Of a stretch of 64,000 nt of DNA, positions 34,921 to 54,739 are shown in pieces (position 1 is the stretch's first letter; every line of letters begins with the position of its first letter). Source of the stretch: a virus; IMG/VR virus record IMGVR_UViG_3300025141_010453, positions 30,013 through 94,012 of that record; one strand, 5' to 3'. The notes under the pieces are model-generated. The model saw nothing but the letters and a program-made list of their open reading frames with translations, ran no database searches and was not told the DNA's origin. The position numbers and the translations under genes are program-made.

Positions 34921-36759
34921 TTAATCTTCTAATAATGACTCTACTTCTTCATTTATAGTTTCAATATTATTTTTAGTTTTATTAACTGCCTCATCTAAGC
35001 CATCTATTGACAATCCCTTTTTTTCCATTAATAATGGTAAACCTTTTTCTTTATTAAATTCTTCAGCTGCTGGTACTGGTTCTGTAACTTCTTCACCCGC
35101 TCCTGGTGCTTCTTCTTCAGGGCCACCCATATCAAATGCTGGTTCAGCTTCACTACCAGCGTCTAAACCTGGTTCTTCACCAGGTGTTTCCCCTGTATCG
35201 CCCCCTTCTGCTGTTGGTGGTTCACCATATAATTTATCTACTGTGTTGAATAGTCCTGTTTTCTTAATAACTTCTTTGGTGGTTTCTAACTCACCAGCTA
35301 AAGCTTTTTCAAATCGCTGTTGTTGTAAATCTAATTTAATTTCTTCATCACTCATACCTAATATAAACTTCTTAGCCCACGTAGCTGAAACAGGAGCAAT
35401 CCCACTTCCTGGGTCCCCCACTGCATCTTTATAAAGAGTGATTTTAGTTTGCCATTGTTCAAGTTTTAATAACTCTGCTTGAGTTGATGGATTTGTTAGT
35501 CCTAAAGAAAAATTTTCTAATTCGTCTTCAAACCCTAACACATATAAATGGATAATAGCTATTTTATTTAATTCTTGTACTATAGCTTTTTGGATTCGAT
35601 TTATTGTTCGGGCAAATCTAATATCTAATAATGCTAGATTTTTACCTTCCCCTACTACTTCTTCAAAACCTAAAAATGCTTTAGGTATTCTAAGAGCTGC
35701 AAGTAATTTTTTCTGTATATATTCTATATCCGCTATTTCACTCAAATTAGTAGCTCCAGGTAAAGTATCTATAGGACTTGCTGCTGCCGGGTCTCTTACG
35801 GGAATAAAATAATCTTGGTCTACTGCCATCTGATTCATTCTTAAATCAACATTACCATTCTGTGGGTCTACTACTGGGTCCCTTTTAAATTTATTTGCTA
35901 CTTTTTGGATATAAGCTTCCACATCTTTATCATCCATATTTCCAACAAATACTTTAAATACTCTTCTTTCTGGTGCTCTAGAGGTTCTATATACTAGCAT
36001 AGCGTCTTCCGCTAAAAGTAATTGTTTCCAAATTCTTCTACACTTCTCTAACATAGAAGTACCATAAGGCAATCTTCTATCATCACCTAATAATCTGAAA
36101 TGAGCAATTTCCCATGAATTAAATTTAAGTTCTTTTTCTCTCCATTTAAATTCTACTTGATGAGCCTTTGGGTCATCATTACTTATTTGATTTAAATAGC
36201 TGTGACCCTCACTTCTTTCCATTTCCAAATTTGGCAGTTGATTACACCCTATAATTCCTTTTTCTGGGTCAATTTTAAGATACACAAAATTATCACCATA
36301 TTTACATGTATTACGTATCCACATCGGTAAATTTGTAGTGATATCTAAAACATTATTAAATAAATCACCTAAAATAGATTTAATTCTAGTAGATTCTGAA
36401 TATAAAGTTAATACATAACCTTTTTCAGATGGGGTTGTTGCTTCTTCCGCATATATATCTAATGCTGCTGAAATTTCAGGTGTAAACTCCATAGATTCAT
36501 AATCATAATATGATGCCAATCTTGTTGGTTCATAATATATTGATTTAGTATATAATTCGTTATCTATTTTTTGCCATTGATTGGCTAAGTATAGGGACTG
36601 TTGAATTTGTAATTTTTCCTTTTCAAATTCAGTTTTAGAATCTGTTTTTAAGATATCTTGAGACCCTAATTTAAATTTTTGATACGTAGGTTCAGGTGCT
36701 GTTGGTCCCGCGGGGCCAAATAATTTAGCGAGCCTTTGGTATATTGTTAAGTTTGCCAT
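34921..36759 (-). CDS. gp20: Portal protein (gp20-like)
   Basis: PEISAALDI, EDAMLVYR.SRAPERRVF, DYFIPVR, TLPGA.NL.EI.DI.Y..KL..AL..P. Confidence 0.95.
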   Translation of the reverse strand: MANLTIYQRLAKLFGPAGPTAPEPTYQKFKLGSQDILKTDSKTEFEKEKLQIQQSLYLANQWQKIDNELYTKSIYYEPTRLASYYDYESMEFTPEISAALDIYAEEATTPSEKGYVLTLYSESTRIKSILGDLFNNVLDITTNLPMWIRNTCKYGDNFVYLKIDPEKGIIGCNQLPNLEMERSEGHSYLNQISNDDPKAHQVEFKWREKELKFNSWEIAHFRLLGDDRRLPYGTSMLEKCRRIWKQLLLAEDAMLVYRTSRAPERRVFKVFVGNMDDKDVEAYIQKVANKFKRDPVVDPQNGNVDLRMNQMAVDQDYFIPVRDPAAASPIDTLPGATNLSEIADIEYIQKKLLAALRIPKAFLGFEEVVGEGKNLALLDIRFARTINRIQKAIVQELNKIAIIHLYVLGFEDELENFSLGLTNPSTQAELLKLEQWQTKITLYKDAVGDPGSGIAPVSATWAKKFILGMSDEEIKLDLQQQRFEKALAGELETTKEVIKKTGLFNTVDKLYGEPPTAEGGDTGETPGEEPGLDAGSEAEPAFDMGGPEEEAPGAGEEVTEPVPAAEEFNKEKGLPLLMEKKGLSIDGLDEAVNKTKNNIETINEEVESLLED

Positions 36760-36803: not shown

Positions 36804-38543
36804 CTATCGGAATTTCCCAAATAACCACGCGTTATCTTTATATAATTGTTTCATATCATTATTATGGTTTCCAGGATGGCCAAATATGCCTTGATTCTGT
36901 TGCGGTCTCCTATGTTCTGGTTCCGATGTTGTTATAGTGTCACTAGTAGTCCAACTTTCTAACATGGCTTTTGTTAAATTATCAGCTTTATGTAAATCTG
37001 TAAATGAATGTTCACCAACATATAAAGCCATGGCTAATGCCATAATTAAATCATCATGTTTTCCTTTCATGTGATTTGGTCTACCATTTAGATATACAAA
37101 TGTATGCATTTCATTTAATAACCTTTTAGACCTAACAATAAATTTATGCCTTAAAGCCTCTTCAAAAGAAGAAATTATTTGTACACGTTTATTATTAAAT
37201 GCAATTCCAGGAACTTTAGTAACTGAATTAGGATTATATTTCCACTTATCCGCGGTGTTAGTCCCTTCTACATACAAATCTTTATATCCTAACTCTTGTA
37301 ATTTTCTAGAAGTTGCGACACCCATACCACCAGTTATATCTGTTACCACATATGCATTATACATACTACCCCATTTATATATTATATCAGCTGCTAAATC
37401 TGGGGGTATTTTGCCTAGATATTCTGCAACTTGGCATCTATCATCAAAATCAATTATGACTATTGAAGTGAAATCTTCGGAATCTCCCCTACTTACATCA
37501 CACCCTAAAATATATCTATGACCTTTAATTGGTTTTTCCCATATCCACATTTGATTTCCAACAAACATATTTTCTGGTTCTCTAATATATTCATTTTTTA
37601 TTTTTTCTATTGTCTCAACTGGTACTACATTATCTCCAGAACCTAAGAAAGCACTTTCTAACTCTTGTTGTATTTTTCTTCTATCATATTTAAGTTTTTT
37701 TACCATATTCTCAAACCAAGAAGAACATGGTTTATACCCATTTTGGACTAATTCATCGAATCTATCTAAACGTTTTTCATGCACAAATTCATCCTCATTA
37801 TAATCTTCCATATTTAATAAAAAATGTACAATATCATTTGTCTTAACCCAAAAAATGTCTTTGGTGAACCTAGGGTCCTTTTGCCAATGTAATTCTGATA
37901 TAACAAAGCTGTTAAGACCTTTTACCGCTTGTTCATAGATTTCATAATAAATTTTATCATACCCATTTGGGGTAGATATAACTATAACTTTACCTCCCGT
38001 AGATAGGGATGCCATACACGCTGCCCAAAAATCATCACCAGCTTCAATATACGCTGCTTCATCAAATATTAATGTCGTTGGGGTGTATCCTCTTAAAGCA
38101 TCTACTGAGGTCGCAACAGCTTTTATCTCACAACCATTATTTAATTTAAAATGTTTTTGTGAATCTTTGTCTTTGGAAAATCCTACCTTAATCCAATCGG
38201 GCCATTGATTTAAAAACCCTCTAACTTTATTGGCAAATTCTTGAGCTGTATCTAATTTATTAGCAATTATAAGAACTTTTTCAGGTCGTGTTTTTGAAGC
38301 GAACTGAAGATTCTTAGAAATCCATGCTGCAGTTGCTGTGGATACTCCTGCTTGTCTATACTTTTTTACTATATTATCATTATATTTTTCAAAATTAGTT
38401 AACATCATTTCCTGTTCTGGAAATAATATAAAAGGAACATACCTAGATTGAGTATTGTCGTAAGTTTCTAAATAAGTTTTAATGGCATAATTAGTGTCTT
38501 GTAAGCACTTCGCATATTCCTGTATTAACTCTTGTTTGTCCAT
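36804..38543 (-). CDS. gp17: Terminase large subunit (gp17-like)
   Basis: KYRQAGVST, DEAA, ISTPNG, GCDVSRG..ED, HDDL.MA. Confidence 0.95.
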   Translation of the reverse strand: MDKQELIQEYAKCLQDTNYAIKTYLETYDNTQSRYVPFILFPEQEMMLTNFEKYNDNIVKKYRQAGVSTATAAWISKNLQFASKTRPEKVLIIANKLDTAQEFANKVRGFLNQWPDWIKVGFSKDKDSQKHFKLNNGCEIKAVATSVDALRGYTPTTLIFDEAAYIEAGDDFWAACMASLSTGGKVIVISTPNGYDKIYYEIYEQAVKGLNSFVISELHWQKDPRFTKDIFWVKTNDIVHFLLNMEDYNEDEFVHEKRLDRFDELVQNGYKPCSSWFENMVKKLKYDRRKIQQELESAFLGSGDNVVPVETIEKIKNEYIREPENMFVGNQMWIWEKPIKGHRYILGCDVSRGDSEDFTSIVIIDFDDRCQVAEYLGKIPPDLAADIIYKWGSMYNAYVVTDITGGMGVATSRKLQELGYKDLYVEGTNTADKWKYNPNSVTKVPGIAFNNKRVQIISSFEEALRHKFIVRSKRLLNEMHTFVYLNGRPNHMKGKHDDLIMALAMALYVGEHSFTDLHKADNLTKAMLESWTTSDTITTSEPEHRRPQQNQGIFGHPGNHNNDMKQLYKDNAWLFGKFR

Positions 38544-42899: not shown

Positions 42900-43646
42900 T
42901 TAAATAGTAGAAACATTTTCTTCTAATGTAAGATTTTTATCTATAAGGTAATTTCTAACGTCATTTAATTTTTTTAAGTACTCATTTCGACGTAAAAACT
43001 TAAATGTAAGGTTTTCATAAGAATATTCACCTTTATCTTCTAAACCACTTCCTCTATATTTTTTCATCTTGTTTTTAAACTTTTCAATGTTCTTTAAAAC
43101 AGCGTCAGGGTCTTCTCTTTTTGCGTCTACTTCGAACCGGTCTATTTGGTTCATCCAGTTTTTAGCTTTACTAAGAATTTTTTTAGAATCTATATGTACT
43201 TCTTCTTTATTCGGTTCTACAATCCATTCATTATATAGAACAGAGTATACCCCACTTGCAAAATGCTCTTCACTATTATCTTGCACATAAATTTCTACAT
43301 CAAATCCTTTAACAGTGATAGCCCTCAAAGAATTCCAAATCATTCTTCTACTATCTAAATACTTTTTTAATAAGGGGTCGGATTGGGAGTCAAAATCCAT
43401 TAAGATGTGTAAATCAGCGTCTGAGAATTGAGACCAGTTGAAATTTGATAGTGAACCAGTTAAAGTAACATCATCTATATCAAGTTCTATATCTACAAAC
43501 TCTATATAATTTTCAACAATGCCCAATAAAGAAATCCTGACCTCTGGCTTCATTTTATAGTTTTCACCATCTGAATACCAAATATCAGGATTAAGTTCTT
43601 CTTGCACCTTAAAACTACTAATAATATTTTTGTTAGAACTTTCCAT
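42900..43646 (-). CDS. Pol-beta superfamily nucleotidyltransferase
   Basis: LTGSL.NFNWS..SDADLHI and VEIYVQD; late motif at 43651-43660. Confidence 0.75.
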   Translation of the reverse strand: MESSNKNIISSFKVQEELNPDIWYSDGENYKMKPEVRISLLGIVENYIEFVDIELDIDDVTLTGSLSNFNWSQFSDADLHILMDFDSQSDPLLKKYLDSRRMIWNSLRAITVKGFDVEIYVQDNSEEHFASGVYSVLYNEWIVEPNKEEVHIDSKKILSKAKNWMNQIDRFEVDAKREDPDAVLKNIEKFKNKMKKYRGSGLEDKGEYSYENLTFKFLRRNEYLKKLNDVRNYLIDKNLTLEENVSTI

Positions 43647-43918: not shown

Positions 43919-44350
43919 TTATTGTGGCTGTGCTTGTTGTACCTGTGGTTGTGTTGGTCCATTATTTATAGGTGGTACAGCTTCTACTTTTCCGTTAATT
44001 GCTTGAATGGTACCATTCATTTGATTAAGTAATAAAGTTAAATTTTTAACAGTGTTATGTAATTGGTCTAGTCTTTCTTCAAATTTTAAGGCTCTCATTG
44101 GATTGTCCTTGAAGTGGTTAACTTTTCCTATTAATTCTTCTGGTGTTCTAAAATCTCTATTAGGTAACCAAATCTCTTCTTGCATTACTATACAAGGCGT
44201 CATTCCTATTCCAGTAATTCTTACTAATTCATTCCATTCATCTTGATTATCTTGTGCTACTATTTCTTCATATTGTATGTTTGCACTATTTAAAGCTTCT
44301 TTTATTCTATGACAATAGTGACAACTTGGGTTTGTGTATAATTTAAACAT
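43919..44350 (-). CDS. Glutaredoxin-like protein with C-terminal coiled coil
   Basis: LYTNPSCHYC, TG...TP. Confidence 0.8.
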   Translation of the reverse strand: MFKLYTNPSCHYCHRIKEALNSANIQYEEIVAQDNQDEWNELVRITGIGMTPCIVMQEEIWLPNRDFRTPEELIGKVNHFKDNPMRALKFEERLDQLHNTVKNLTLLLNQMNGTIQAINGKVEAVPPINNGPTQPQVQQAQPQ

Positions 44351-44421: not shown

Positions 44422-46287
44422 TTACTTTACTTCTTCAAATTCAACATCTGTTGCTTCATTTGAGTTATCCTGAACTGGTTCTTCTGTTTCAGTCTCTTCG
44501 TATAATTTTGTACTGATTTCTTGCCAAGTACTATTAAGTTTCTCGGTTAATTCTTCTACCCCATCCATATCTTCTGACTCACAGACTTCCCTTAACTCTT
44601 TAATATTATTTTCTAATCTAGATTTATCATTATCATCTAGTTTATCACTCATATCCTTAATTTGTTTTTCGGTTTGGAACATTAAAGCGTCTGCTTTATT
44701 TAATTTCTCTACCTTTTCTTTTTTCTTATTGTCTTCTACTGAATTAGCTTCAGCTTCTTTTTTCATTCTATCGATTTCTTCGTCGGATAAACTACTCCCA
44801 GATTCAATTTTAATATTTTGTTGTTTTCCAGTACCCTTATCTAAAGCTTTAACATCAATAATACCATTTGCGTCAATATCAAACGTAACTTCAATCTGTG
44901 GAATTCCTCTTGGTGATGGTGGAATGTCTGTTAACTGAAATCTACCTAATGTTCTATTATCTCCAGCCATTGGTCTTTCTCCTTGTAAAACATGAATATC
45001 TACTGCTGGTTGATTATCTACTGCTGTAGAAAAAACTTGTGATTTAGAAGTAGGTATAGTCGTGTTTGAATCAATTAATTTTGTCATTACTGCTCCCATA
45101 GTTTCAATACCTAAAGAAAGTGGGGTAACGTCTAATAGTAAAACGTCAGTAACGTCTCCTACTAATACACCACCTTGTATTGCTGCTCCCATAGCTACAA
45201 CTTCATCTGGATTTACCCCTTTAGAGGGTTTTTTCTTGAATAGTTTTTCTACTGCTTGTTGTACTATTGGGATTCTCGTTGACCCACCAACTAATAATAT
45301 TTCGTCAATCTCGGTTACTTTTATTCCAGCGTCTTTAATAGCTTTTCTACATGGGGTTAAACTTTTCTTAACTAACTCTTCTACCATTGATTCAAATTTA
45401 GCTCTGGATAGTGTACGTACTAAATGTTTTGGCCCACTTTGGTCTGCTGTAATATAAGGTAAATTTATCTCTGTTGTAGTAGAATTTGAGAGTTCTACTT
45501 TTGCTTTTTCTGCTGATTCTCTTAGTCTTTGTAACGCTGCTGGGTCTTTACTTAAGTCCATACCTTGTTCAGACTTGAATTCTTCAACTAACCAATCAAT
45601 AATTTTCTCATCAAAGTTATCACCACCTAGATGGGTATCACCATTTGTTGATTTAACTTCGAAAACCCCATCACCCAATTCTAATATAGATATATCAAAT
45701 GTACCACCACCTAAGTCATAAACTGCGACAGTCATATCTTTATTTTTCTTATCCATTCCATATGCTAACGCTGCGGCTGTGGGTTCATTAATTATCCTAA
45801 GTACTTTTAGTCCCGCAATTTCTCCAGCTTCTTTTGTAGCCTTTCTTTGTTCGTCATTAAAATATGCTGGAACGGTTATTACAGCTTCCGTTACTTTTGT
45901 TCCTAAATAATCTTCTGCTGTTTTTTTAAGATTTTGTAAAACTACTGCAGAAATTTCTTGTGGAACATATGAGTTATCTCCAACTTTGATTGTGACGATA
46001 TCTTTAGCTCCCTTACTAATACTGTAAGACATTTTTTTAGCTTCCTTACTTATCTCACTAAATTTACTACCTATAAATCTTTTTACAGAATAAATGGTAT
46101 TTTTAGGGTTACTTACCGCTTGTCGTTTTGCTGGGTCACCAACCATTCTATCTCCATTTTTATAGGATACTACAGAAGGGGTGGTTCTTTTACCTTCTGA
46201 ATTAACAATTATTTCGGGAGACCCCGCTTCAACCACCGAAACACACGAATTTGTTGTTCCTAAATCAATTCCAATTACTTTTGTCAT
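44422..46287 (-). CDS. dnaK: Chaperone DnaK (Hsp70)
   Basis: [43 protein letters not shown]-terminal DVEFEEVK. Confidence 0.98.
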
Positions 46288-46349
46288 TTTTTTTTATTTT
46301 ATTTGTTTATTTTATTTGTTTATGAAATTACTTTCACTACTTTTATAGT

Positions 46350-46365
46350 ACAATTACTGTACCAA
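46350..46365 (-). promoter_or_regulatory. sigma54-like -24/-12 promoter of dnaK
   Basis: TTGGTACAGTAATTGT = GG-N10-GT versus consensus TGGCAC-N5-TTGC. Confidence 0.55.
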
Positions 46366-46387
46366 AGGTAATAAATAAGTATTCCGA

Positions 46388-46421
46388 TGTCAACCTGTCA
46401 AAATGTAATGACACTTTGTCA
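46388..46421. promoter_or_regulatory. TGTCA/TGACA operator or enhancer array between dnaK and clpC
   Basis: TGTCA-acc-TGTCA (46388-46400) and palindromic TGACA-ctt-TGTCA (46409-46421). Confidence 0.6.
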
Positions 46422-46467
46422 GGTATTGATTATTTTAAACAAATATATTAAATTTAAATAAAAAAAT

Positions 46468-48507
46468 ATGATAGATTTTAGTGCAGATTCAGAAATGGAT
46501 GAAATAAGTGGTCGTAAAGAACCACAGAAACGCCCACCTAGTGAAAGTGGGACCCCTATATTAGATAATTTCTCAAGAGACCTAACTCATTTAGCGTCCT
46601 TAGGTGAATTGGACCCTGTAGTAGGGCGCGATGATGAAGTTAAAAGAATTGTTCAGATATTGGCGAGACGTAAAAAAAATAACCCTGTTTTAATTGGGGA
46701 AGCTGGAGCAGGAAAAACATCAGTAGTCGAAATGTTGGCTACAATGATACATACAGGTGAATGTCCAAGAAAACTTTTAAATAAAAGAATTGTGTTATTA
46801 GAATTATCATCTCTTGTTGCTGGTACCAAATATAGAGGTCAGTTTGAAGAGAGGATGAAAGCAATTATAGATGAATTAAGAGAAAATAAAGATGTTATTA
46901 TTTTTATTGATGAGATTCATACTGTTGTTGGTACTGGAAATTCATCAGGAAATTTAGATGCTGCAAATATCTTTAAACCGCCTTTATCCAGAGGAGAGCT
47001 TCAATGTATTGGTGCCACGACTTTAGATGAATATAGAGAAAAGATTGAGCGAGATGGTGCTTTAGAAAGGCGTTTTCAAAAAGTTACTATTGATGCTCCT
47101 TCATTAGAGGAGACTATAAAAATTCTTAATAGTATAAAATACGTTTATGAGGACCATCATAATGTAATCTATAGTGAAGAATGTATAGAATTATGTGTTA
47201 AATTAGCAGATAGATATATAAATGATAGAGCGTTTCCAGATAAAGCTATAGATGTTATGGATGAGGTGGGGTCAATGGTACAAATAGATATTAAAACACC
47301 AAAATATATAGAAACTCTCAAAAATGATATAAATTCTTTAAAACAAGAAAAAATTTCAGTGGTTAAAAGTCAAAATTATGAGAAAGCAGCAGATTTAAGA
47401 GATGATGAACGTAAATTAACTAAAAAATTAGAAGATTTAACAAAAAAGTGGGACCGCAAACAATCACTCAATAAAATTGAGGTGACTGTGGATAATGTCA
47501 TGTATGTAGTTTCTAAAATCACTAAAATCCCCTTAAGTAGGATGAATCAAAACCAAAAAAAGAATTTATTAAATTTAGATAAGCATTTAAAGAAATCTGT
47601 AATAGGACAAGACGAAGCAATAAACACTATAGTAAAATCAATTAGAAGAAATTCAGTAGGAATTAAAGAATTAAATAAACCTATCGGGTCATTTATTTGT
47701 TTAGGCCCTACTGGTGTAGGAAAAACCCACCTAGCTAAAAAACTAGCAGAACTTATGTTTGGGTCAGAAGAATCTATGATTAGAGTAGATATGTCGGAAT
47801 ATCAAGAAAAACATTCTGTGTCTAGACTAATTGGTTCCCCTCCAGGTTATGTTGGATATAATGAAGGTGGGCAATTTACTGAAAAAGTAAGGCAAAACCC
47901 ATATTCTTTAATTCTTTTTGATGAGATAGAAAAAGGTCATCGTGATATATTTAATATTCTTTTACAAATTCTAGATGATGGTTATGTGACCGATGCATCT
48001 GGAAGAAAAATTAATTTTAAAAATACTTTAATTATGATGACTTCAAATATTGGGGTTAGAAATGCTCAGGATTTTAGTAATGGTTTAGGGTTTACTACTA
48101 AAGCTTCCCAACGAACGGATAAAGAAAGGGTTAGAAGTATAATTTCAAAATCTTTAAAAAACACTTTTAACCCAGAATTTCTAAATAGACTAGATGACAT
48201 CATTATTTTTGAGCCATTAGATAAAGTTGGCATTAAGAAAATCGTAAAAATAGAGTTATCTCACCTAACCGCTAGATTGACGGAAAAAGGTTACACTATT
48301 AAATTTGGTCCCTCTGTTGTAGGCCATATTTGTGTTATTGGTCATGATGATAAGTTTGGTGCTCGTCCACTTAAAAGGGCCATACAATCAGAAGTAGAAG
48401 ATTTTATTGCCGCACAAATACTTAAAAATACAATTAAAGAAAATAACTCTTATACATTGAGTTATAATAAAAATACTGAAAAATTTAAACTAATTGAGAA
48501 ACAATAG
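46468..48507 (+). CDS. clpC: ClpC-type AAA+ unfoldase lacking the Clp N-terminal domain
   Basis: LDPVVGR, RRKKNNP, GEAGAGKT, UVR-like QNYEKAADLRD, GPTGVGKT, GSPPGYVGY, LGF loop, GARPL. Confidence 0.92.
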   Translation: MIDFSADSEMDEISGRKEPQKRPPSESGTPILDNFSRDLTHLASLGELDPVVGRDDEVKRIVQILARRKKNNPVLIGEAGAGKTSVVEMLATMIHTGECPRKLLNKRIVLLELSSLVAGTKYRGQFEERMKAIIDELRENKDVIIFIDEIHTVVGTGNSSGNLDAANIFKPPLSRGELQCIGATTLDEYREKIERDGALERRFQKVTIDAPSLEETIKILNSIKYVYEDHHNVIYSEECIELCVKLADRYINDRAFPDKAIDVMDEVGSMVQIDIKTPKYIETLKNDINSLKQEKISVVKSQNYEKAADLRDDERKLTKKLEDLTKKWDRKQSLNKIEVTVDNVMYVVSKITKIPLSRMNQNQKKNLLNLDKHLKKSVIGQDEAINTIVKSIRRNSVGIKELNKPIGSFICLGPTGVGKTHLAKKLAELMFGSEESMIRVDMSEYQEKHSVSRLIGSPPGYVGYNEGGQFTEKVRQNPYSLILFDEIEKGHRDIFNILLQILDDGYVTDASGRKINFKNTLIMMTSNIGVRNAQDFSNGLGFTTKASQRTDKERVRSIISKSLKNTFNPEFLNRLDDIIIFEPLDKVGIKKIVKIELSHLTARLTEKGYTIKFGPSVVGHICVIGHDDKFGARPLKRAIQSEVEDFIAAQILKNTIKENNSYTLSYNKNTEKFKLIEKQ

Positions 48508-48513
48508 TCGATG

Positions 48514-48523
48514 GATATTTATA
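48514..48523 (+). promoter_or_regulatory. Putative late promoter GATATTTATA
   Basis: 4 nt upstream of GTG 48528. Confidence 0.65.
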
Positions 48524-48527
48524 AGCC

Positions 48528-49628
48528 GTGAAGCTAATAATAACAAAAAAACAATCTAAGAGATTAATTAAAGAAGCATTAGGTGTGCCTAAATCCGTTG
48601 AGTTTTGGGTTGATACTTTTTCTTCTATAGTTAATGATGGTTTATTAATGTTATTATCTTCTGATGATAAAGAAGTATTTTTTAATGGTGATGATATCCA
48701 AGAAAAAGCAGTTTCTTTAGGGTGGAATAGTATGAATGATAAATTTTTAGATTTTCCACTAGCTGAACCACAATTAAACCTAAAATTAGTAGTAGTCCCT
48801 GATGAAAATATAGAAACAGGAGATGATTATATTGACGCGGCTTCTTTTGATACTAGTGAAACTGATATGGTGGACGCAACCTTTGATGATGGTAGAACCT
48901 TACCTTTGTTAGTAGGTGGCACAATTAATATCCAAATAAATATTCCTGAGTCTTCCTATGAAAATGGTAGTTTTATAGAGCTTTACAGTTCTGAAATAAA
49001 ACCATATGCAGAATCTATTTTCTTTCATGAATTAACACATGTTTACGAATTTTATAAAAGAATATTAAGTAATACCTCTAAACCTAATTTCGAACAGATT
49101 ACCAATTTAACTCAAATGTTAAATAAAATGGGTGCTGTAGATGACTGGGATGAATTAATGTTTATGATTTATTTACATTTATCTTTTGAACTTAATGCTA
49201 GAATTTCTGAGGTTTATGGATTACTAAGAAATAAAAGAATCTCTTCTAAGGAAGAGTTCATAGACTTCTTAAAGACTTCTAGAGCTTTTTCTTATGCTAA
49301 AAGACTTAATAATTTTAGTGCTGAAAAATTTATAGAGGAGTTCGATGTTCCACAAGAGACGATAGATAGAATTAGAGAATATGATGGAAAAAAGACCTCA
49401 CTAGATGAAATAAAAAATGTGGTTCTAGAACAACTTATCAAAAATTGGTCGGTAACCTATGAAGGCTTTTTGAAAGATTTTTCTGCGGACGAAACTATCA
49501 AAATACCTAACTTATCTCCTAAAACAATTTCTTCACCCCAAAACTTTCTTAAATTCTGGGAAAAACGTTTTAATAAAGCGGGGCATGATTCTTTAAGAAA
49601 AATCTCAAGATTATATTCGTTACTTTAA
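48528..49628 (+). CDS. Zincin-like (HExxH) protein with head-targeting-type leader
   Basis: MKLIITKKQSKRLIKEA; FFHELTH ... SFELNAR. Confidence 0.6.
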   Translation: MKLIITKKQSKRLIKEALGVPKSVEFWVDTFSSIVNDGLLMLLSSDDKEVFFNGDDIQEKAVSLGWNSMNDKFLDFPLAEPQLNLKLVVVPDENIETGDDYIDAASFDTSETDMVDATFDDGRTLPLLVGGTINIQINIPESSYENGSFIELYSSEIKPYAESIFFHELTHVYEFYKRILSNTSKPNFEQITNLTQMLNKMGAVDDWDELMFMIYLHLSFELNARISEVYGLLRNKRISSKEEFIDFLKTSRAFSYAKRLNNFSAEKFIEEFDVPQETIDRIREYDGKKTSLDEIKNVVLEQLIKNWSVTYEGFLKDFSADETIKIPNLSPKTISSPQNFLKFWEKRFNKAGHDSLRKISRLYSLL

Positions 49629-49672
49629 TATTTTTTTTATATCTTTGTATTGTATAATAAAAAAAATTAATT

Positions 49673-50275
49673 ATGGAAGGATACATTTACTTAGGAGAAC
49701 ATTATGATGTTCTTAATCGAGAAATAGGCATTTCGGATAAAAAAATAGGATTGTCTATAGACCCTATTAATAGAGAAATTTCCTTAACTAAAACTAAATC
49801 CCCTATTAGATATAGAATTGTATCTGCATATAAAGTAGATGACATGCGTCGTGTTGAAAAAATGTTGCACAGTATATTAGATAGTAGACGAGTATTTGGT
49901 GAGTGGTTTAGAGATGATGACGATACTTTAGAAGGGGACTTTATTAATTTTATGAATGCCTATGGTGGAGAAGTTTATAATATACAAGAAGTTAAAGAAG
50001 AAAATGCTTTATTAAAAGAAGATATGAGATTATTAGAAGTTGTTAAAAAACATGGTGCTCCACTTAATCTAGTAAGAAAATATCTGGGTATAGAATATGA
50101 TGTTTTATTGGATAAGAATGGTCTTCTACATTTTAATGGTGATGTTTTTAATACCCCTAATAAACTTTATAACAATGGTATTGTCTTTCATGTTAAAAAG
50201 AAACGAGGTGGAAGTGGCACCAATAACTTATCTCAATTTAAAATCAAAGAAACAGGCGAAAGATTATTTGATTAA
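49673..50275 (+). CDS. T5orf172/GIY-YIG-type nuclease with RAMA-like C-terminal domain
   Basis: GYIY, KIGLS.DP..R, EK.LH..L...R..GEWF; C-terminal Y.G.EY...LD.NG....NG..F.TP. Confidence 0.7.
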   Translation: MEGYIYLGEHYDVLNREIGISDKKIGLSIDPINREISLTKTKSPIRYRIVSAYKVDDMRRVEKMLHSILDSRRVFGEWFRDDDDTLEGDFINFMNAYGGEVYNIQEVKEENALLKEDMRLLEVVKKHGAPLNLVRKYLGIEYDVLLDKNGLLHFNGDVFNTPNKLYNNGIVFHVKKKRGGSGTNNLSQFKIKETGERLFD

Positions 50276-50307
50276 TTTGGTAATACCAACTTATTTTCTT
50301 ATCTTTG
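50276..50307 (+). promoter_or_regulatory. Bacteroidota housekeeping promoter (-33 TTTG / -7 TATCTTTG)
   Basis: TTTG 50276-50279, 20-nt spacer, TATCTTTG 50300-50307. Confidence 0.75.
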
Positions 50308-50311
50308 TAGT

Positions 50312-50812
50312 ATGAATTTAGAAAAAACACGAAATATAGCAATTAAACTAATGAGACAACACGGTCTTATTACGTATACATTTAAGTGGGATAGAGCTGT
50401 AAGAAGGTTTGGCTCCCATAATGGACGAATGCAAACTATTTCCCTTTCTAGACCTTTAACTCTCCACGAAACTAACAAATGTAGAGTTAAAAATACTATT
50501 TTACATGAAATAGCACATGCTTTAGACCATCAACAACGTGGTTATTCTAATCACGATGCTAACTGGAAAAGAATTGCACGGTCTATCGGGTGTAGTGGTG
50601 AAAGATGTAGTAGTAGTTCAGGTGTAGATAAGTCTAAAATATTAAAATGGGTAGCTACCTGTCCTAGTTGTGAAAGAAAAGTTTACTACGCAAGACAAAA
50701 AGCAAAAGATGTAGCTTGTGGTAAATGTTGTAAAAAACATAATAATAGCAAGTATGCCCCTGAGTATAAATTTAATTGGAAATTAAATAGGTGTGTCGTA
50801 AAATATATATAA
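50312..50812 (+). CDS. SprT-like zinc metalloprotease
   Basis: TILHEIAHA, H...WK..A..IG, CPSC..CGKC. Confidence 0.88.
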   Translation: MNLEKTRNIAIKLMRQHGLITYTFKWDRAVRRFGSHNGRMQTISLSRPLTLHETNKCRVKNTILHEIAHALDHQQRGYSNHDANWKRIARSIGCSGERCSSSSGVDKSKILKWVATCPSCERKVYYARQKAKDVACGKCCKKHNNSKYAPEYKFNWKLNRCVVKYI

Positions 50813-51342
50813 TGGAAAAGTTACAGTATAAAATAAAAAATGGTCCGAGAGTAGAGTCTCTAGTTGAGTATAGGCTGTCTGATGACACCACAGTTGCAAT
50901 GTTCCAAGGGTTTAGGGGTGAGAACCCAGACCTAGACTTTATAGTAAAATACAAAGAAAAAGATAAGAGATTAAGAACCCCCTCTCACACACATTGGATT
51001 GTGGATTTAGTTATTAAAGGTGAAATTAATAAAGCCGGGACATTGGAGTTGGTTAAAGAACTAATAGAAATGTATGACTCTATTGAACCATTTAAGACTG
51101 TGGAAGAAAGAAATAATTATAAATTAATATACGCGCATGAGATAGCTAGAGATTTTTCATGGTTAGATGGGATTGGGTCGTTATCGTTAGAATTAATTGG
51201 TACTTTAGTGGAATTATTTTCTAAGTGTGAAAAACAAACTAGTGGAGCATTTATGTTTAGAAGTATGTTAACTTTAACTAAAGAATATCTAGAGGACAAA
51301 AAAGACTACTACCAAATAATAGGAACATCAAAAAGAGTTTAA
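50812..51342 (+). CDS. Hypothetical protein
   Basis: ATG overlaps the previous stop (TAATG); RTPSHTHWIVDL motif. Confidence 0.6.
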   Translation: MEKLQYKIKNGPRVESLVEYRLSDDTTVAMFQGFRGENPDLDFIVKYKEKDKRLRTPSHTHWIVDLVIKGEINKAGTLELVKELIEMYDSIEPFKTVEERNNYKLIYAHEIARDFSWLDGIGSLSLELIGTLVELFSKCEKQTSGAFMFRSMLTLTKEYLEDKKDYYQIIGTSKRV

Positions 51343-51343
51343 T

Positions 51344-52150
51344 GTGAAAGAAAAATTAAAAGAATTATTATCAATACCTACCAGGACTTGGGAAGAAGAT
51401 AGAGTTATTTCCTATTTAATAGAACAATTTGAATTAAAGGGATATAAATATGATATTGATGACTTGGGTAATCTTTATGTTACTAAAGGTATTTCTGATT
51501 ATTATCCTTTAGTTTTAGCTCACACAGATAGTGTGCATGAGATTAAAGAAATGGTTGTAAAGGAAGAATATTTACCTAATGCACAAGGTGAAAATAAATT
51601 AGCACTTAAAGCTTATACTAAAGATGGTAATCTACCTACGGGTATCGGAGGTGATGATAAAGCAGGGGTTTTTATTTGTTTACAATTACTAGAAAAATTT
51701 AATACACTTAAAGCCTTTTTTCCTGTAGCAGAAGAAACTGGTTGTCATGGAAGTAGAGATGCTAAAGAAGAATTTTTTAAAGATGTTGGTTATGCCATTC
51801 AATTTGACTCAACTGAAAATGATACCATGTCTCTTTCACTTATGGGCACTCAATTGTTTGAGGAGAAATCTGAATTTTTTAATAAAACTAAAAATATAAT
51901 TTTAGAACATGGTTTTACCGAGTGGAGACATCATCCGTATACTGATAATATGGTCCTTAAGGAAAAATTTGATTTTGCTTGTTTAAATTTTGCTGCTGGT
52001 TACTATAGGTACCATACTGATAATGAATATGTGATAGTGGAAGATGTAAAAAATTCTATAAATCTAGGGAAAAATGTAATAAAAAAATTAGGTAATTCTT
52101 TTTATAAATTTAAGGCAACTAAAAAAGATTCTTTTGGGTGGTTTGATTAG
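51344..52150 (+). CDS. M28/M20/M42-clan metallopeptidase
   Basis: GNLY, AHTDSV, GGDDKAG, EETGCHGS, YHT..E. Confidence 0.85.
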   Translation: MKEKLKELLSIPTRTWEEDRVISYLIEQFELKGYKYDIDDLGNLYVTKGISDYYPLVLAHTDSVHEIKEMVVKEEYLPNAQGENKLALKAYTKDGNLPTGIGGDDKAGVFICLQLLEKFNTLKAFFPVAEETGCHGSRDAKEEFFKDVGYAIQFDSTENDTMSLSLMGTQLFEEKSEFFNKTKNIILEHGFTEWRHHPYTDNMVLKEKFDFACLNFAAGYYRYHTDNEYVIVEDVKNSINLGKNVIKKLGNSFYKFKATKKDSFGWFD

Positions 52151-52152
52151 TC

Positions 52153-52734
52153 TTAATAATCACCTTCAGTTGTTGTGTAGTCAAATCCACGATATAGTGG
52201 TAAATCCTCCCTATTAATTATTTCTCTTACCCATTCTGAAACTGGTTTATATATTAACATACTAGGTCCTCCACCCGCAAAAGCATCATCCTGTTGAAAA
52301 TTATCTAAACTATCTCTACTTAATTCTGGGTATAATCCTAGTTTTTGTAGGTCGGCTATCATTTCTGATGTTACTTTTCTTAAAAAAACATTTATGTAGT
52401 GGAGCCCTTTACCTTCTTTTAATCTTTTTATAATAATCTCTTTCCAATAACGGTCCAAATAGTTCAATAAATAAAAATCTTTAATTTCTTTCTTTTTTTC
52501 AGGTGTATATTCTACTCTTTGTTCTTTTATAGTTAATTTTTCTAAAATATCTTCTAGCATTATAAGAGTGTTGGGATTCCAATTACTATCTTTATTAACA
52601 AAATGTAGAACTGTTGCAATTTTTCCGTCTATTTCTAGTATATTAGAAATATTTTTAATTTCGGTTAAAGTGTCTGATGTAGAATTAGTTATTATTGTAT
52701 CTACTCTATCTAATAAATCTTTTATATTATTCAC
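52153..52734 (-). CDS. Hypothetical late protein
   Basis: 193-aa ORF with late motif at 52748-52756. Confidence 0.55.
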   Translation of the reverse strand: MNNIKDLLDRVDTIITNSTSDTLTEIKNISNILEIDGKIATVLHFVNKDSNWNPNTLIMLEDILEKLTIKEQRVEYTPEKKKEIKDFYLLNYLDRYWKEIIIKRLKEGKGLHYINVFLRKVTSEMIADLQKLGLYPELSRDSLDNFQQDDAFAGGGPSMLIYKPVSEWVREIINREDLPLYRGFDYTTTEGDY

Positions 52735-52756
52735 GTTATATTTTTATTATAAATAT

Positions 52757-52787
52757 TTTGATTATTAGTATAAGATACTTATATTTG
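52757..52787 (+). promoter_or_regulatory. Bacteroidota housekeeping promoter for the small ORF and tmRNA
   Basis: TTTG 52757-52760, 19-nt spacer, TATATTTG 52780-52787. Confidence 0.7.
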
Positions 52788-52810
52788 TAACATAATTAAA
52801 TAATTAAACT

Positions 52811-53011
52811 ATGCCAAAATCCAAAAATAGAAAAAATCATAAGAAAAAAGTTCAAGCACGTAATATGAGAATTCGAGCAGAACAAAAACAAATGGTACAA
52901 CAACTTGATGACCTAAAAGAAAAATACACCAAAGAAATGGCTGATAAAGCTAAAGAATCTTCTGAAGAAGATAGTGGTGATGTACCTTTTACTTTGGGTG
53001 GTGATAAGTAA
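52811..53011 (+). CDS. Small protein with basic N-terminus and acidic C-terminus
   Basis: MPKSKNRKNHKKK; ends 6 nt before the tmRNA. Confidence 0.65.
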   Translation: MPKSKNRKNHKKKVQARNMRIRAEQKQMVQQLDDLKEKYTKEMADKAKESSEEDSGDVPFTLGGDK

Positions 53012-53017
53012 TAATAT

Positions 53018-53428
53018 GGGGGTGACTGGAATTGATTGGCGTTGGTCAATTAATGTCAGCACGTCGAGCCTGAGTTAAGCTCGTAAAATCTGATTCATTT
53101 TTTTAACTGGCAAAACAATTGCTAAGTTGACGACTTTAGGGCTTGTCCGTGAAACGTCAACTGTAGCTATAGCGTAACTAAGTTACGAGATAGCTCCGGT
53201 TCAACTAAAGTAGATTTAAGGTTTGTAGCTTTAGTATAGAACTGTCATTTTATACAAACCAATCCCACTAGTACTGCTTGGGTGGTTAAATACAAGGTAG
53301 TTGAGGTTTCTCTGAGTGTTGTTTATTTTGTAAGAGTTACTTAAGATGTTAAGAATAAACTAAACGTGTAGGATAGATATTTTTTGAAGATGAACAAGAC
53401 GGGGGTTCGATACCCCCCACCTCCACCA
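53018..53428 (+). ncRNA. ssrA: tmRNA (transfer-messenger RNA)
   Basis: 5' GGGGGTG pairs with 3' CACCTCC-ACCA including G3.U70; T-arm GGGGG-TTCGATA-CCCCC; pk1-like CGAGC/GCTCG; TAACT-GGC resume site, tag ORF 53109-53177 with the stop in a hairpin. Confidence 0.93.
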
Positions 53429-53460: not shown

Positions 53461-54739
53461 ATTTTAATAGTTTCACTAAACCTATGGGTTCTTCTTTAAG
53501 GATATTTATTAGTCCAACTTTTTCTTCGTTTACTGATACTTTTGCTATTTTCCCGTCTACAACTGTGTATTTTATTATATTCATGTCGTCTTTAAGAGCC
53601 TTATTAGTTCTCGCCTCGTCTTCAGGGTATAATAGTGGTGTACCTATTTCAAATTGTAATCTGTAGTTTAGTGTAGATGTTGATGTGTGGTTTTTCAATT
53701 CAGTAATGCCGTCAGTTTCTCCGTTCCTATCAGTTCCATGATATATACTAAATTGTCCTATTATTTCAGATGCGGGATTAAATATAGTTACTCTTTGGAA
53801 TGGGAAGGTATCGTCTTTATCATCATTTTTAGTTTTAAGTTCTGCAACTGCAAGAGCTTTTGCAAAATCGTCCACCAGTTCAGATGGCCAAACACCTGTG
53901 GTGTAAACCCCCTTAGCACTTTTTAGAAATAAGAATCCGTTGCGTTTTTCTATAATCTTCTTGTTTATCGTTTCTATTACTTGTTTGGTGGCAGCAGAAA
54001 TAGATTCAAAGTGACCAGCAGGTAAACTACCATCATTTTTATACTTAATAACTTCATATGGAGCGTCTATTGAATATGGGGCATCGTCTGGGTAACACCC
54101 AAACTTATTATTACAAAAATTATAGTCATTTTTTAAATCAACTCGTATTGAGTACTCACAAGATATCTCTTTAATACCTGTAGGAGGTTTATCGTCAACA
54201 CACTCTCCTAGATTTTTTTTACACCAATAATTGTCGGCCGTAGGGTCTAAACATCCATATATTTCTTCTGGTTCGTCTACTACCTGGTTATTGTTACTAG
54301 GGGTATAACATTGACAACTTCTATTACTCCAGGCCCTAGGTGATACACATGCATCGAATTCCGCTTTTAAGGCTGGGTCAAAAGAAGGGGAGGTATCGTC
54401 TAGTCTTTCAGCACAGGTTGCAGCTTTTAAATATTTACACACATATTTATCCGCTTGAATTAATGCATTTTTTGCATCCTTTGTTGCTTTGTTATCCCAA
54501 TCATTTATGGATGCAGCATCTATATTATGGAAGGCTTTTAGATACCCACATATCTGGGCGTCAGTTAAAAGGGCGGCGAAAGGCTCATCAATTGTACTTA
54601 AAAGCTTACCATTTACTTTTACTCCACTAGGTTCATACACATATGATGCATTATGTGTAAGATTATACTCATACATCGCGATGCCGTCACACTTATCGTT
54701 AGGGTGAACCCCTCTATTTCCACAAGGTAGTAATGCCAT
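53459..54739 (-). CDS. Cys-rich hypothetical (putative virion) protein
   Basis: YGCLDPTADNY motif, many cysteines; last gene of a late operon. Confidence 0.55.
   Translation of the reverse strand: MALLPCGNRGVHPNDKCDGIAMYEYNLTHNASYVYEPSGVKVNGKLLSTIDEPFAALLTDAQICGYLKAFHNIDAASINDWDNKATKDAKNALIQADKYVCKYLKAATCAERLDDTSPSFDPALKAEFDACVSPRAWSNRSCQCYTPSNNNQVVDEPEEIYGCLDPTADNYWCKKNLGECVDDKPPTGIKEISCEYSIRVDLKNDYNFCNNKFGCYPDDAPYSIDAPYEVIKYKNDGSLPAGHFESISAATKQVIETINKKIIEKRNGFLFLKSAKGVYTTGVWPSELVDDFAKALAVAELKTKNDDKDDTFPFQRVTIFNPASEIIGQFSIYHGTDRNGETDGITELKNHTSTSTLNYRLQFEIGTPLLYPEDEARTNKALKDDMNIIKYTVVDGKIAKVSVNEEKVGLINILKEEPIGLVKLLK

Follow-up and report, generated by a model that had tools for sequence, protein, structure and literature searches.

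The region between dnaK and a tmRNA gene in the virus DNA analysed here can be read, with moderate confidence, as an accessory region serving protein turnover and ribosome rescue in a T4-like jumbo phage that infects marine Bacteroidota. Judged by gene order and co-occurrence, its core parts, ClpC, a clan-MH peptidase and the tmRNA, have been inherited together across a large clade of aquatic phages. All parts of the cluster are intact in the window (the whole 64,000-nt stretch analysed; Table 1), and every element listed in the original prediction of a phage-encoded proteostasis system was recovered in its place, including the SprT-like protease and the adjacent glutaredoxin and KTSC genes, both of which were found by Pfam.

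Table 1. Features of the dnaK-clpC-tmRNA region, in window coordinates.
Feature	Position	Strand	Basis
Conserved 248-aa protein, family 7	42900..43646	-	No Pfam match for the window protein
KTSC-domain protein, 81 aa	43673..43918	-	Pfam KTSC, 58.4 bits
Glutaredoxin-like protein	43919..44350	-	Pfam Glutaredoxin, 39.6 bits
DnaK (Hsp70), full length, divergent from clpC	44422..46287	-	Pfam HSP70, 857 bits, residues 4-596 of 621
dnaK-clpC divergent intergenic region, 180 bp	46288..46467	.	ORF coordinates
ClpC-type double-ring AAA+ unfoldase without N-domain, 679 aa	46468..48507	+	Pfam
Orphan 366-aa protein, HELTH motif at residue 167	48528..49628	+	Motif
GIY-YIG / T5orf172-type homing-endonuclease-like gene	49673..50275	+	Pfam MUG113, T5orf172
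SprT-like zinc metalloprotease	50312..50812	+	Pfam SprT-like, 43.9 bits; phrog_1006; HEIAH at residue 65
183-aa protein (family 35, 5 loci)	50791..51342	+	No Pfam or PHROG match
Putative clan-MH metallo-exopeptidase (M42/M20-like), 268 aa, co-catalytic, catalytic domain only	51344..52150	+	phrog_4191 peptidase at 2.6e-35
193-aa protein (family 49, 3 loci)	52153..52734	-	No family match
Candidate 66-aa ORF directly 5' of the tmRNA	52811..53011	+	ORF list; no family match
One-piece tmRNA	53018..53428	+	ARAGORN; Rfam RF00023, 108.6 bits (gathering score 47), model positions 1-374
Tag reading frame: GGC resume codon, 22 codons, then UAA	53109..53177	+	Consensus resume codon falls on GGC when aligned to the Rfam model

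The window belongs to a 94-kb IMG/VR virus record. The T4-like jumbo phage from which it comes has a genome of roughly 300 kb, and the record covers about 28% of it. Its assignment to a phage is borne out by genes for the major head protein, portal, large terminase and S77 prohead protease inside the window, and the dnaK-clpC-tmRNA region lies at the edge of this conserved head and packaging block. The host phylum of this marine jumbo phage is probably Bacteroidota, because the closest cellular DnaKs (63-70% identity) are, with one exception, Bacteroidota by record title.

The phage ClpC comprises the Pfam domains AAA, AAA_lid_9, UVR, AAA_2 and ClpB_D2-small, and a Pfam search found no Clp_N domain, in agreement with the predicted loss of the N-domain. 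It aligns with residues 156-792 of Bacillus subtilis ClpC (706 bits), has Walker A and B motifs in both rings and pore loops KYRG and GYVG, and its GLGF aligns to the VGF ClpP-docking loop of the B. subtilis protein. This architecture is stable: all 69 distinct phage homologues are 650-706 aa long and keep G[IVL]GF together with both Walker B motifs, and every one of them lacks the Clp_N repeat domain of about 150-170 aa. Two AAA+ rings, pore loops and an (I/V/L)GF docking loop are likewise found in the ClpC of B. subtilis (PDB 3J3S) and Staphylococcus aureus (6EM8), and phage and cellular ClpC have in common a UVR-type middle domain and an aromatic residue at the F436 position. By contrast, the ClpC-ClpP systems of Firmicutes and Bacteroidota possess the Clp_N domain that the phage homologues lack as a whole. 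Flavobacteriales homologues are 50-57% identical to the phage ClpC, and in the sampled Flavobacteriales the best ClpC matches are nearly all in open frames of 837-875 aa. The Firmicutes ClpC adaptors MecA and McsB/phospho-arginine depend on the N-domain; its absence therefore makes adaptor docking and phospho-arginine recognition through that domain impossible in the phage protein. Each related genome has exactly one Clp-type ATPase, and the search for such ATPases found neither ClpX nor HslU in the related phage genomes.

We place the conserved peptidase downstream of clpC in clan MH, nearest to the M42 TET aminopeptidases and M20 PepT, on the basis of its family profile (a match to PepT 3gb0 at 2e-8), its invariant metal-ligand-like residues (H60, D62, D104, E130, E131, D155, H197 and H224) and a structural model with pLDDT 92. 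Foldseek matched this model to PhTET1 at 9e-13 and to PepT at TM 0.73. In the original note it was assigned to the M28 clan; the window protein falls below the Pfam cut-offs for M28 and M42, and among 25 family members M42 is matched in 22 and M20 in 20. Fold and invariant metal-ligand pattern are common to the phage peptidase and the TET/M42 and PepT/M20 enzymes (Foldseek probability 1.00; TM 0.6-0.73), whereas the inserted dimerisation or PDZ-like domain of the latter is missing from the phage protein. TET/M42 and PepT/M20 exopeptidases act downstream of ATP-dependent proteases. The peptidase adjoins ClpC in 67 of 81 loci.

The other genes between clpC and the tmRNA have narrow distributions. 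The predicted HExxH protein does carry a HELTH motif, invariant in seven homologues, but it occurs in eight close loci only and has no family or fold match (Pfam, PHROG; model pLDDT 80, best Foldseek E 0.15, best VIA Z 4.6), so that we treat it as a motif only. The SprT-like gene is found in nine loci, and the 66-aa ORF has a 59% tblastn match in L001 only. The homing-endonuclease-like gene is, to judge from its distribution, a mobile insert outside the module; it is confined to the window and locus L011, at 94% identity compared with 77% for ClpC. Upstream of clpC, the KTSC gene is a conserved neighbour (70/81 loci), as is family 7 (65/81), whose homologue in L060 has weak nucleotidyltransferase matches (NTP_transf_2 at E 3e-4); the glutaredoxin-like gene is limited to seven loci of the closest relatives.

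The predicted structure of the tmRNA shows covariation. Compensatory changes occur at 28 of 32 predicted pairs among 30 homologues, and the acceptor stems of related tmRNAs covary while keeping G3.U. The tmRNA also occurs as RNA in seawater: two metatranscriptome runs gave contigs, all from one study, that are at least 99% identical to it and cover 53026-53404. Strand, ends and expression level cannot be read from contigs of this kind, and none of them extends over the flanking genes. The encoded tag of 22 aa, GKTIAKLTTLGLVRETSTVAIA, agrees with the long tag that had been predicted. Its frame is kept in 51 related phage tmRNAs, with codon-position entropies of 0.82/0.59/1.30, pN/pS of 0.53 (shifted frames: 0.88 and 0.96), and codon switches that preserve the peptide (CGT/AGA, CTT/TTA); by this pattern of substitution the tag is under peptide-level constraint. 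Tags of the lineage are 21-22 aa long with a conserved K-[ML]-x-x-[LIV]-G-L core and a V-x-A end, many variants ending in VAA. They are specific to the clade and dissimilar to the tags of 54 Bacteroidota, which are about half as long (8-10 aa) and have (L/M)AA ends.

The proposed co-occurrence of tmRNA and truncated ClpC is found within the clade in both directions, since the tmRNA lies near ClpC in 42 of the 46 loci with enough flank and all 29 records whose tmRNA belongs to this lineage contain ClpC, but it fails outside the clade, where ClpC-like genes are found in other huge phages that show no tmRNA or have it 360 kb away. Within the clade no tmRNA was found near ClpC in at least three loci (L006, L012 and L019), and for L019 the search took in the entire record, which is 73% complete; G003 (73% complete), L006 and L012 keep ClpC, ClpP, Hsp20 and the peptidase with no tmRNA seen. 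On their arrangement, ClpC, peptidase and tmRNA are not one operon, because in most relatives they stand on different strands, in the alternating order ClpC(+), peptidase(-), family 8(-), tmRNA(+). From the terminase through the tmRNA the relatives have a single syntenic block, and co-localisation may therefore reflect descent alone.

These observations bear on whether the parts form a closed, phage-private tag-and-degrade circuit, in which the phage ClpC-ClpP would read the phage tag, for example by its K-[ML]-x-x-[LIV]-G-L core or V-x-A end, and, during infection, clear the products of stalled translation independently of host ClpXP. We regard this as rather unlikely. The long, clade-specific tag kept at the peptide level, ClpC as sole phage Clp ATPase beside a phage-encoded ClpP, and the reciprocal co-occurrence all argue for it, as does the fact that Escherichia coli ClpA without its N-domain still degrades ssrA-tagged proteins. 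However, the parts are not an operon, ClpC is kept where the tmRNA was not found, and the link between them breaks down beyond the clade; moreover, ssrA tags in studied bacteria are read mainly by ClpX rather than ClpC, and the many tags ending in VAA are possibly readable by host ClpXP.

The gene facing clpC varies by sublineage, being DnaK in 22 of 81 loci (all of the marine sublineage), Hsp20 in 28 and a UVR-motif protein in 15. This chaperone-type neighbour, the position of the block against the head and packaging module, and the tRNA genes flanking the tmRNA in several relatives would also fit a ClpC whose main work does not involve ClpP: as a disaggregase or assembly chaperone it would, together with DnaK or Hsp20, fold or rescue the many large structural proteins of the phage, the tmRNA then being an unrelated translation-support gene of the tRNA region. 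Assembly roles have been proposed for jumbo-phage ClpA/ClpX-type proteins by Iyer et al. 2021 (PMC7824862). We nevertheless judge this improbable, as the ClpP-docking tripeptide is universal among the homologues and a true ClpP is encoded, the middle domain is short, of the ClpC/UVR type, whereas coupling to DnaK belongs to the long ClpB type, and the conserved exopeptidase next door fits proteolysis.

Tag, unfoldase and chaperone are thus supplied by the phage itself, as had been suggested, with tmRNA, ClpC and DnaK all in the window. ClpP, SmpB, GrpE and DnaJ were found neither in the window, as originally noted, nor in the whole 94-kb record; because this record is only about 28% complete, their absence says little about the whole genome. 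In relatives at least 65% complete, DnaJ is present in six of eight records and ClpP in seven of eight, with an intact Ser/His/Asp triad and sited outside the head module. On sequence grounds the ClpP of the relatives is a bona fide ClpP, distinct from the head module's own S77 protease. For this particular phage, whose record lacks the gene, we infer ClpP from the relatives, and its absence from the window would be due to the record being a fragment. The version in which the phage gives only tag, unfoldase and chaperone and borrows host ClpP is very improbable: ClpP is missing from the 94-kb record and from the 66%-complete relative G188, but the former is a fragment and ClpP is encoded by the other seven relatives of at least 65% completeness and by 8 of 12 smaller clade fragments. 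SmpB was found in none of 54 records (the window's own and 53 related, one of them 100% complete) and GrpE in none of six; both are therefore probably taken from the host, as had been proposed for SmpB.

The phage lineage resembles bacterial trans-translation with AAA+ proteolysis (tmRNA-SmpB; ClpXP/ClpAP) in its one-piece tmRNA, alanine acceptor stem (G3.U), resume codon and tag ORF with a hydrophobic stretch plus Ala at its end, and in a genome lineage that encodes both a Clp unfoldase and ClpP. The bacterial ssrA tag is degraded by ClpXP or ClpAP, with help from SspB. The phage-encoded system differs in having neither SmpB nor ClpX, its sole unfoldase being the N-domain-less ClpC, in a putative coupling of tag and protease, and in a longer tag with an internal motif and V-x-A end in place of the short (L/M)AA tags of the host phylum.

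Phage-encoded tmRNAs are known from the OM43 phage Melnitz and pelagimyophages (PMC9004378) and from huge phages (PMC7162821), likewise as complete tmRNAs in lytic-type phages, and their authors already speculate on upkeep of translation or protein tagging for degradation. The Melnitz-type tmRNA is, however, two-piece and riboswitch-controlled, with no Clp unfoldase neighbour reported (PMC9004378), whereas the present one is one-piece, encodes a long tag private to its clade and stands in synteny with ClpC and the exopeptidase. For T4-related jumbo phages with an S77 prohead protease, Iyer et al. 2021 (PMC7824862) record ClpP, ClpA/ClpX-type AAA+ proteins, SprT-like peptidases, DnaJ and Hsp20, a sporadic repertoire that overlaps the chaperones and peptidases of this lineage; the passages of that survey considered here make no mention of a conserved ClpC-exopeptidase-tmRNA block, and the term tmRNA has 0 occurrences in the text of the survey. 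Manipulation of ClpCP-type proteolysis by a phage during infection is also known from SPO1 Gp53, an adaptor-like protein that reprograms host ClpCP (PMC6873191). SPO1 contributes only an adaptor for host ClpC; the present lineage, as known from its genes, encodes unfoldase and peptidase themselves.

In the protein-turnover and ribosome-rescue reading that we prefer, host AlaRS would charge the tmRNA with alanine through the retained G3.U, and host SmpB and EF-Tu would deliver it to stalled ribosomes, the phage being without smpB, where it would add the phage-specific 22-residue tag. The ClpC hexamer would use its LGF loops to dock on a ClpP that the phage itself encodes at another place in its genome, and would work without the adaptors MecA and McsB/phospho-arginine. 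The clan-MH exopeptidase would cut ClpP-released oligopeptides to amino acids for phage protein synthesis, and DnaK with phage DnaJ and host GrpE would fold or hand over proteins. It is possible that these parts form one orthogonal circuit and that tagged proteins pass straight to the phage ClpCP; that the parts serve the same general process we consider somewhat probable.

All elements named in the original prediction, each gene as well as the tmRNA, were found in the window (see table), and with intact tmRNA, ClpC and DnaK the phage does supply a tag, an unfoldase and a chaperone. The ClpC-like protein aligns to residues 156-792 of Bacillus subtilis ClpC with 706 bits. Both AAA+ modules have intact Walker A and B motifs and pore loops, a Pfam UVR match lies at residues 288-317, and the short middle domain aligns to the ClpC M-domain with a Tyr at the F436 position. 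In D2, GLGF at 539-542 aligns to the VGF ClpP-docking loop of B. subtilis ClpC. At least 588 viral contigs encode a ClpC relative; all 69 distinct homologues from the best 80 are 650-706 aa long, with both Walker B motifs retained, as is G[IVL]GF. The Clp_N repeat domain serves as the docking site for adaptors and phospho-arginine. No Clp_N match was found in the phage protein, the alignment starts at B. subtilis residue 156 and the ORF cannot extend upstream, which bears out the predicted lack of an N-domain. Given also the lengths of its homologues, we consider that the protein probably works like ClpC, yet is not a canonical ClpC.

Features of the window and of related records, with their locations
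Feature	Location	Strand	Description
Major head protein	29641-31449		
Prohead protease	32938-33630		S77, T4 gp21-type
Portal	34921-36759		
Large terminase	36804-38543		
248-aa protein	42900-43646		homologue in related locus L060: L060:7422-8165
DnaK	44422-46287	-	PF00012 857 bits, positions 1-598 of 599, full length; occupies the slot divergent from clpC
ClpC-like protein	46468-48507		679 aa; two AAA+ rings, UVR middle domain, D2-small
HExxH protein (orf366)	48528-49628	+	
GIY-YIG/T5orf172-type gene	49673-50275		
TTTG-N19/20-TAnnTTTG box	50276-50307		upstream of SprT-like gene
SprT-like zincin			Pfam 43.9 bits (cut-off 25.6); HEIAH at residue 65
TTTG-N19/20-TAnnTTTG box	52757-52787		upstream of orf66 and tmRNA
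orf66	52811-53011	+	
Slot genes of two related loci	L060:9392-9862; L037:9383-9835		
Tail-fibre-like gene, related locus	L017:12017-14686		889 aa; YadA-head repeats and S74 intramolecular chaperone
ClpC homologue, marine relative G111	G111:C1:51519-53486		826-aa open frame
Shorter ClpP-like genes, two relatives	G111:C1:228124-228543; G187:C1:29414-29806		one with internal TAA
Second tmRNA lineage, two fragments	L257:1523-1900; L271:197-670		

Each related record contains exactly one AAA_2-type ATPase, which is this ClpC, and neither ClpX nor HslU was found among these ATPases. In the likely host order, the Flavobacteriales, 40 of 41 sampled genomes encode a ClpC homologue (50-57% identity), nearly all best matches lying in open frames that span 837-875 aa and leave room for an N-domain. 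In two very small Flavobacteriales genomes (G130 and G146, 0.3 and 0.6 Mb) the ClpC-like open frames span no more than 665 and 706 aa and may represent N-domain-less ClpC in reduced cellular genomes. The open frame of the homologue in the marine relative G111 may include an N-terminal extension.

The surrounding peptidases are in part different from what had been proposed. In the HExxH protein the motif, HELTH, is invariant in seven homologues, and searches of Pfam, PHROGs, Foldseek against the PDB and a wide VIA search gave no convincing family or fold. The supposed M28-clan peptidase does belong to clan MH by its metal-ligand pattern and fold, but the window protein falls below the Pfam cut-off for M28 (19.9 against 21.3), as it does for M42 (20.4 against 23.2), and is nearer to TET/M42 and PepT. 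Among 25 family members, matches at E<=0.01 were obtained to M42 in 22, to M20 in 20 and to M28 in 6. Residues H60, D62, D104, E130, E131, D155 and H197/H224 are invariant (pattern H-x-D, D, E-E, D, H), the family profile matches peptidase T (2e-8) and Xaa-His dipeptidase, and a model with a pLDDT of 92 gave Foldseek probability 1.00 to TET1/M42 aminopeptidases and PepT. We interpret the gene as encoding a predicted clan-MH exopeptidase catalytic domain. The GIY-YIG/T5orf172-type gene occurs only in the window and in locus L011 among the loci from the best 80 of at least 588 relatives; the two copies are 94% identical, the flanking ClpC 77%, and the gene is probably a recently moved homing endonuclease. 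The L060 homologue of the 248-aa neighbour has a weak nucleotidyltransferase match (NTP_transf_2, E 3e-4); a link of this protein to addition of the tmRNA 3' end (CCA) would be pure speculation.

The tmRNA is called by ARAGORN and scores 108.6 bits against Rfam RF00023 (gathering score 47) over the full model, positions 1-374. Its tRNA-Ala-like acceptor stem pairs 5' GGGGGUG with 3' CACCUCC-ACCA and includes a G3.U pair. Across relatives the acceptor stems covary with G3.U retained, and compensatory changes occur in 28 of the 32 predicted pairs, T-arm pairs included. The window's gene encodes the terminal CCA, which many tmRNA genes of the clade do not. No tRNA gene was found in the 64-kb window; in five related loci (L021, L024, L013, L014, L020) the tmRNA has tRNA genes (Glu, Leu, Arg, Ile) as immediate neighbours.

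Metatranscriptome contigs from two runs of one study match the tmRNA (53026-53404) at >=99% identity, one run at a depth of 42-59 and the second at about 4-6. None lies over 47340-52949 or 53698-54445, though DNA runs cover every bin. Because the contigs match the tmRNA and leave its flanking genes bare, the tmRNA exists as RNA in nature, seen as contigs from seawater. One RNA contig begins at 53026 with an Illumina adapter directly before it, 8 nt inside the predicted 5' end, which suggests that a cDNA fragment terminated near the mature 5' end. Over dnaK and the 5' end of clpC, RNA contigs gave short 90-95% matches, which lie inside longer foreign contigs and were rejected as signs of expression. 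That the tmRNA is an integration-site leftover was likewise rejected, given its full-length match to Rfam, the covariation, the conserved tag and the RNA contigs.

The tag frame, as placed by the Rfam alignment and by its retention in 51 related phage tmRNAs, runs from the resume codon GGC at window position 53109 through 22 codons to UAA; the tag start given by ARAGORN lies four codons too late. The encoded 22-residue tag is GKTIAKLTTLGLVRETSTVAIA. A comparison of 39 distinct tag ORFs shows the most variation at codon position 3 (entropy 0.82/0.59/1.30 for positions 1/2/3), and pN/pS is 0.53 in frame versus 0.88 and 0.96 in the shifted frames. Synonymous switches occur between CGT and AGA for Arg and between CTT and TTA for Leu. 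We interpret this pattern as an indication that the tag peptide itself is under selection, with the consensus G-N-[TV]-[FLI]-x-K-[ML]-x-[AT]-[LIV]-G-L-[ITV]-R-E-x-x-V-x-A.

The tag was predicted to be long and unusual, and comparison with the host phylum agrees. A tmRNA was found in 97 of 101 sampled Bacteroidota genomes, and all of the 54 tags extracted have 8-10 residues, with LAA or MAA at the end (e.g., GENNYALAA, ADDYSYAMAA, DNNYSYRLAA). The phage tag, in contrast, has twice that length, an internal motif of its own and a different end. Matches of the phage tmRNA profile to the 54 Bacteroidota tmRNAs are restricted to the 3' tRNA-like end, so that no bacterial donor could be identified among them.

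The host assignment itself rests on DnaK. The 80 nearest cellular DnaK loci are 63-70% identical to the phage protein, and of those whose titles name a taxon all but one, a MAG labelled Limnohabitans, are Bacteroidota, with Cyclobacteriaceae and Flavobacteriales in the majority. The Bacteroidota promoter motif TTTG-N18-20-TAnnTTTG has 6 matches in the window (GC about 31%) versus 2.6 expected, a number that 6 of 100 shuffles reach; this excess is suggestive of the host, and not significant on its own. Many marine metagenome runs, from more than one study, contain DNA near-identical to the window. In the isolate-phage collection the only near-identical DNA was a 49-base ClpC match and no close cultured relative was found; the best protein matches are two uncultured huge phages (54% identity).

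Clustering of ORFs in the related loci reveals a conserved order: terminase and further conserved genes, the 248-aa protein and KTSC, a variable slot, ClpC, the MH peptidase, a protein of about 450 aa, the tmRNA, and then variable genes. In 81 loci (best 80 of at least 588 relatives) the MH peptidase is present in 67, and the ~450-aa protein, absent from the window, lies between peptidase and tmRNA in 54. What fills the slot divergent from clpC differs between sublineages in the same sample: 22 loci, those of the marine sublineage, have DnaK, 28 have Hsp20 and 15 have a 150-aa protein with two UVR motifs. This variation looks like non-orthologous replacement at a fixed position. In locus L017 a tail-fibre-like gene is inserted between ClpC and peptidase. 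In most relatives ClpC and tmRNA lie on the plus strand, and the peptidase and ~450-aa protein genes between them on the minus strand, so the region is not one operon.

The tmRNA lies 4.1-11.8 kb (median 4.7 kb) downstream of the clpC start and is present in 42 of the 46 loci, from the best 80 of at least 588, whose sequence continues for >=7.5 kb downstream. Of the four loci in which it was not found, L010 is on the same contig as L258, where the tmRNA 5' pattern occurs further along. In the reverse direction, using two tmRNA 5'-end patterns and counting the 31 records with >=5 kb upstream of the tmRNA, ClpC was found in 29. The two tmRNA fragments without ClpC were rejected as exceptions of the clade: they share no protein family with it, come from a different phage and have a tmRNA of another lineage, whose tag ends in DYA(V/I)AA. 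This second marine lineage (L257 and L271) has the same 5' end and another long tag, ending EDAMAFVGADYA(V/I)AA, with neither ClpC nor MH peptidase within 11-12 kb; tmRNAs of marine phages may often have long tags. One clade member that is 73% complete (G003) lacks a tmRNA, despite having ClpC, ClpP, DnaJ, Hsp20 and the peptidase. The predicted co-occurrence of long-tag tmRNA and truncated ClpC therefore holds within the clade, but fails in two huge phages outside it: one of 642 kb encodes a ClpC-like protein but has no tmRNA, and in one of 484 kb the tmRNA lies 360 kb from the ClpC-like gene.

As predicted, ClpP, SmpB, GrpE and DnaJ are absent from the window, and none was found in the whole 94,012-base IMG/VR virus record, of which the window covers bases 30013-94012 and whose CheckV completeness of 28% implies a genome of roughly 300 kb. 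The absence of ClpP is explained by the record being a fragment: ClpP is encoded in 7 of the 8 clade records that are >=65% complete and in 8 of 12 smaller fragments, contrary to the proposal that it is borrowed from the host. The relatives' protein matches Streptococcus pneumoniae ClpP over its full length (164 bits) with the Ser-His-Asp triad aligned and, as judged from this alignment, is a true ClpP. Its gene adjoins a carbamoyltransferase gene outside the head module, which has its own S77 protease, and a role as prohead protease was rejected. Two relatives have a second, shorter ClpP-like gene. DnaJ occurs in 6 of the 8 records >=65% complete and in the related phage G004, GrpE in none of six records, and Hsp70 only in the marine sublineage. 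SmpB (PF01668) was found in none of 54 records, our own and 53 related, one of them 100% complete; host SmpB would probably have to serve the phage tmRNA, as had been proposed.

We favour the reading that these genes are a set of phage tools, inherited together, that serve ribosome rescue and protein turnover, and think it probable. The tmRNA would use host AlaRS, SmpB and EF-Tu, the adaptor-free ClpC would act on phage ClpP, the exopeptidase would finish the peptides and DnaK would work with phage DnaJ. Tagged proteins might be passed directly to ClpCP.

A stronger version would make this a phage-private tag-and-degrade circuit, in which the phage's own adaptor-free ClpC-ClpP reads the internal core (K-[ML]-x-x-[LIV]-G-L-x-R) and the end (V-x-A) of the conserved 21-22-residue tag, or DnaK/DnaJ or Hsp20 hands the tag over. 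Such a circuit would recycle ribosomes that stall through host-mRNA decay or defence RNases, and the exopeptidase would turn their products into amino acids with no competition for host ClpXP. We regard such a degron circuit as rather unlikely. A ClpP-independent chaperone role of ClpC, a protein whose putative ClpP-docking loop is kept in every homologue compared, appears improbable. That the phage relies on host ClpP is very improbable for a lineage encoding its own.

Phage tmRNAs are already known from about 2.3% of isolate genomes, with similar speculation on their role (PMC9004378), and from huge phages (PMC7162821). ClpP, ClpA/ClpX-type, SprT-like peptidase, DnaJ and Hsp20 genes are reported as sporadic in jumbo phages by Iyer et al. 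2021 (PMC7824862). SPO1 Gp53 is an example that phages do manipulate ClpCP. In the literature on phage-encoded tmRNA and on ClpC, jumbo phages and tmRNA we found no description of a block of N-domain-less ClpC, exopeptidase and tmRNA, of a long private tag conserved as a peptide, or of an interchangeable chaperone slot. The components are of known kinds; the arrangement is new.

The lineage provides a well-defined test case for the role of phage tmRNAs and of chaperone and Clp genes in infection, as it combines a tmRNA seen as RNA in seawater, a long tag conserved as a peptide and unlike all those sampled from the likely host phylum, and, on the protein side, one adaptor-free ClpC, a ClpP of the phage and an exopeptidase. 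If the phage protease reads the tag, the lineage would have the first viral degron system that brings both writer and reader, and would offer a ready-made orthogonal degradation tag for Bacteroidota. If not, it would be a clear example of jumbo phages building a proteostasis toolkit by module swapping, with DnaK, Hsp20 or a UVR protein in one slot.
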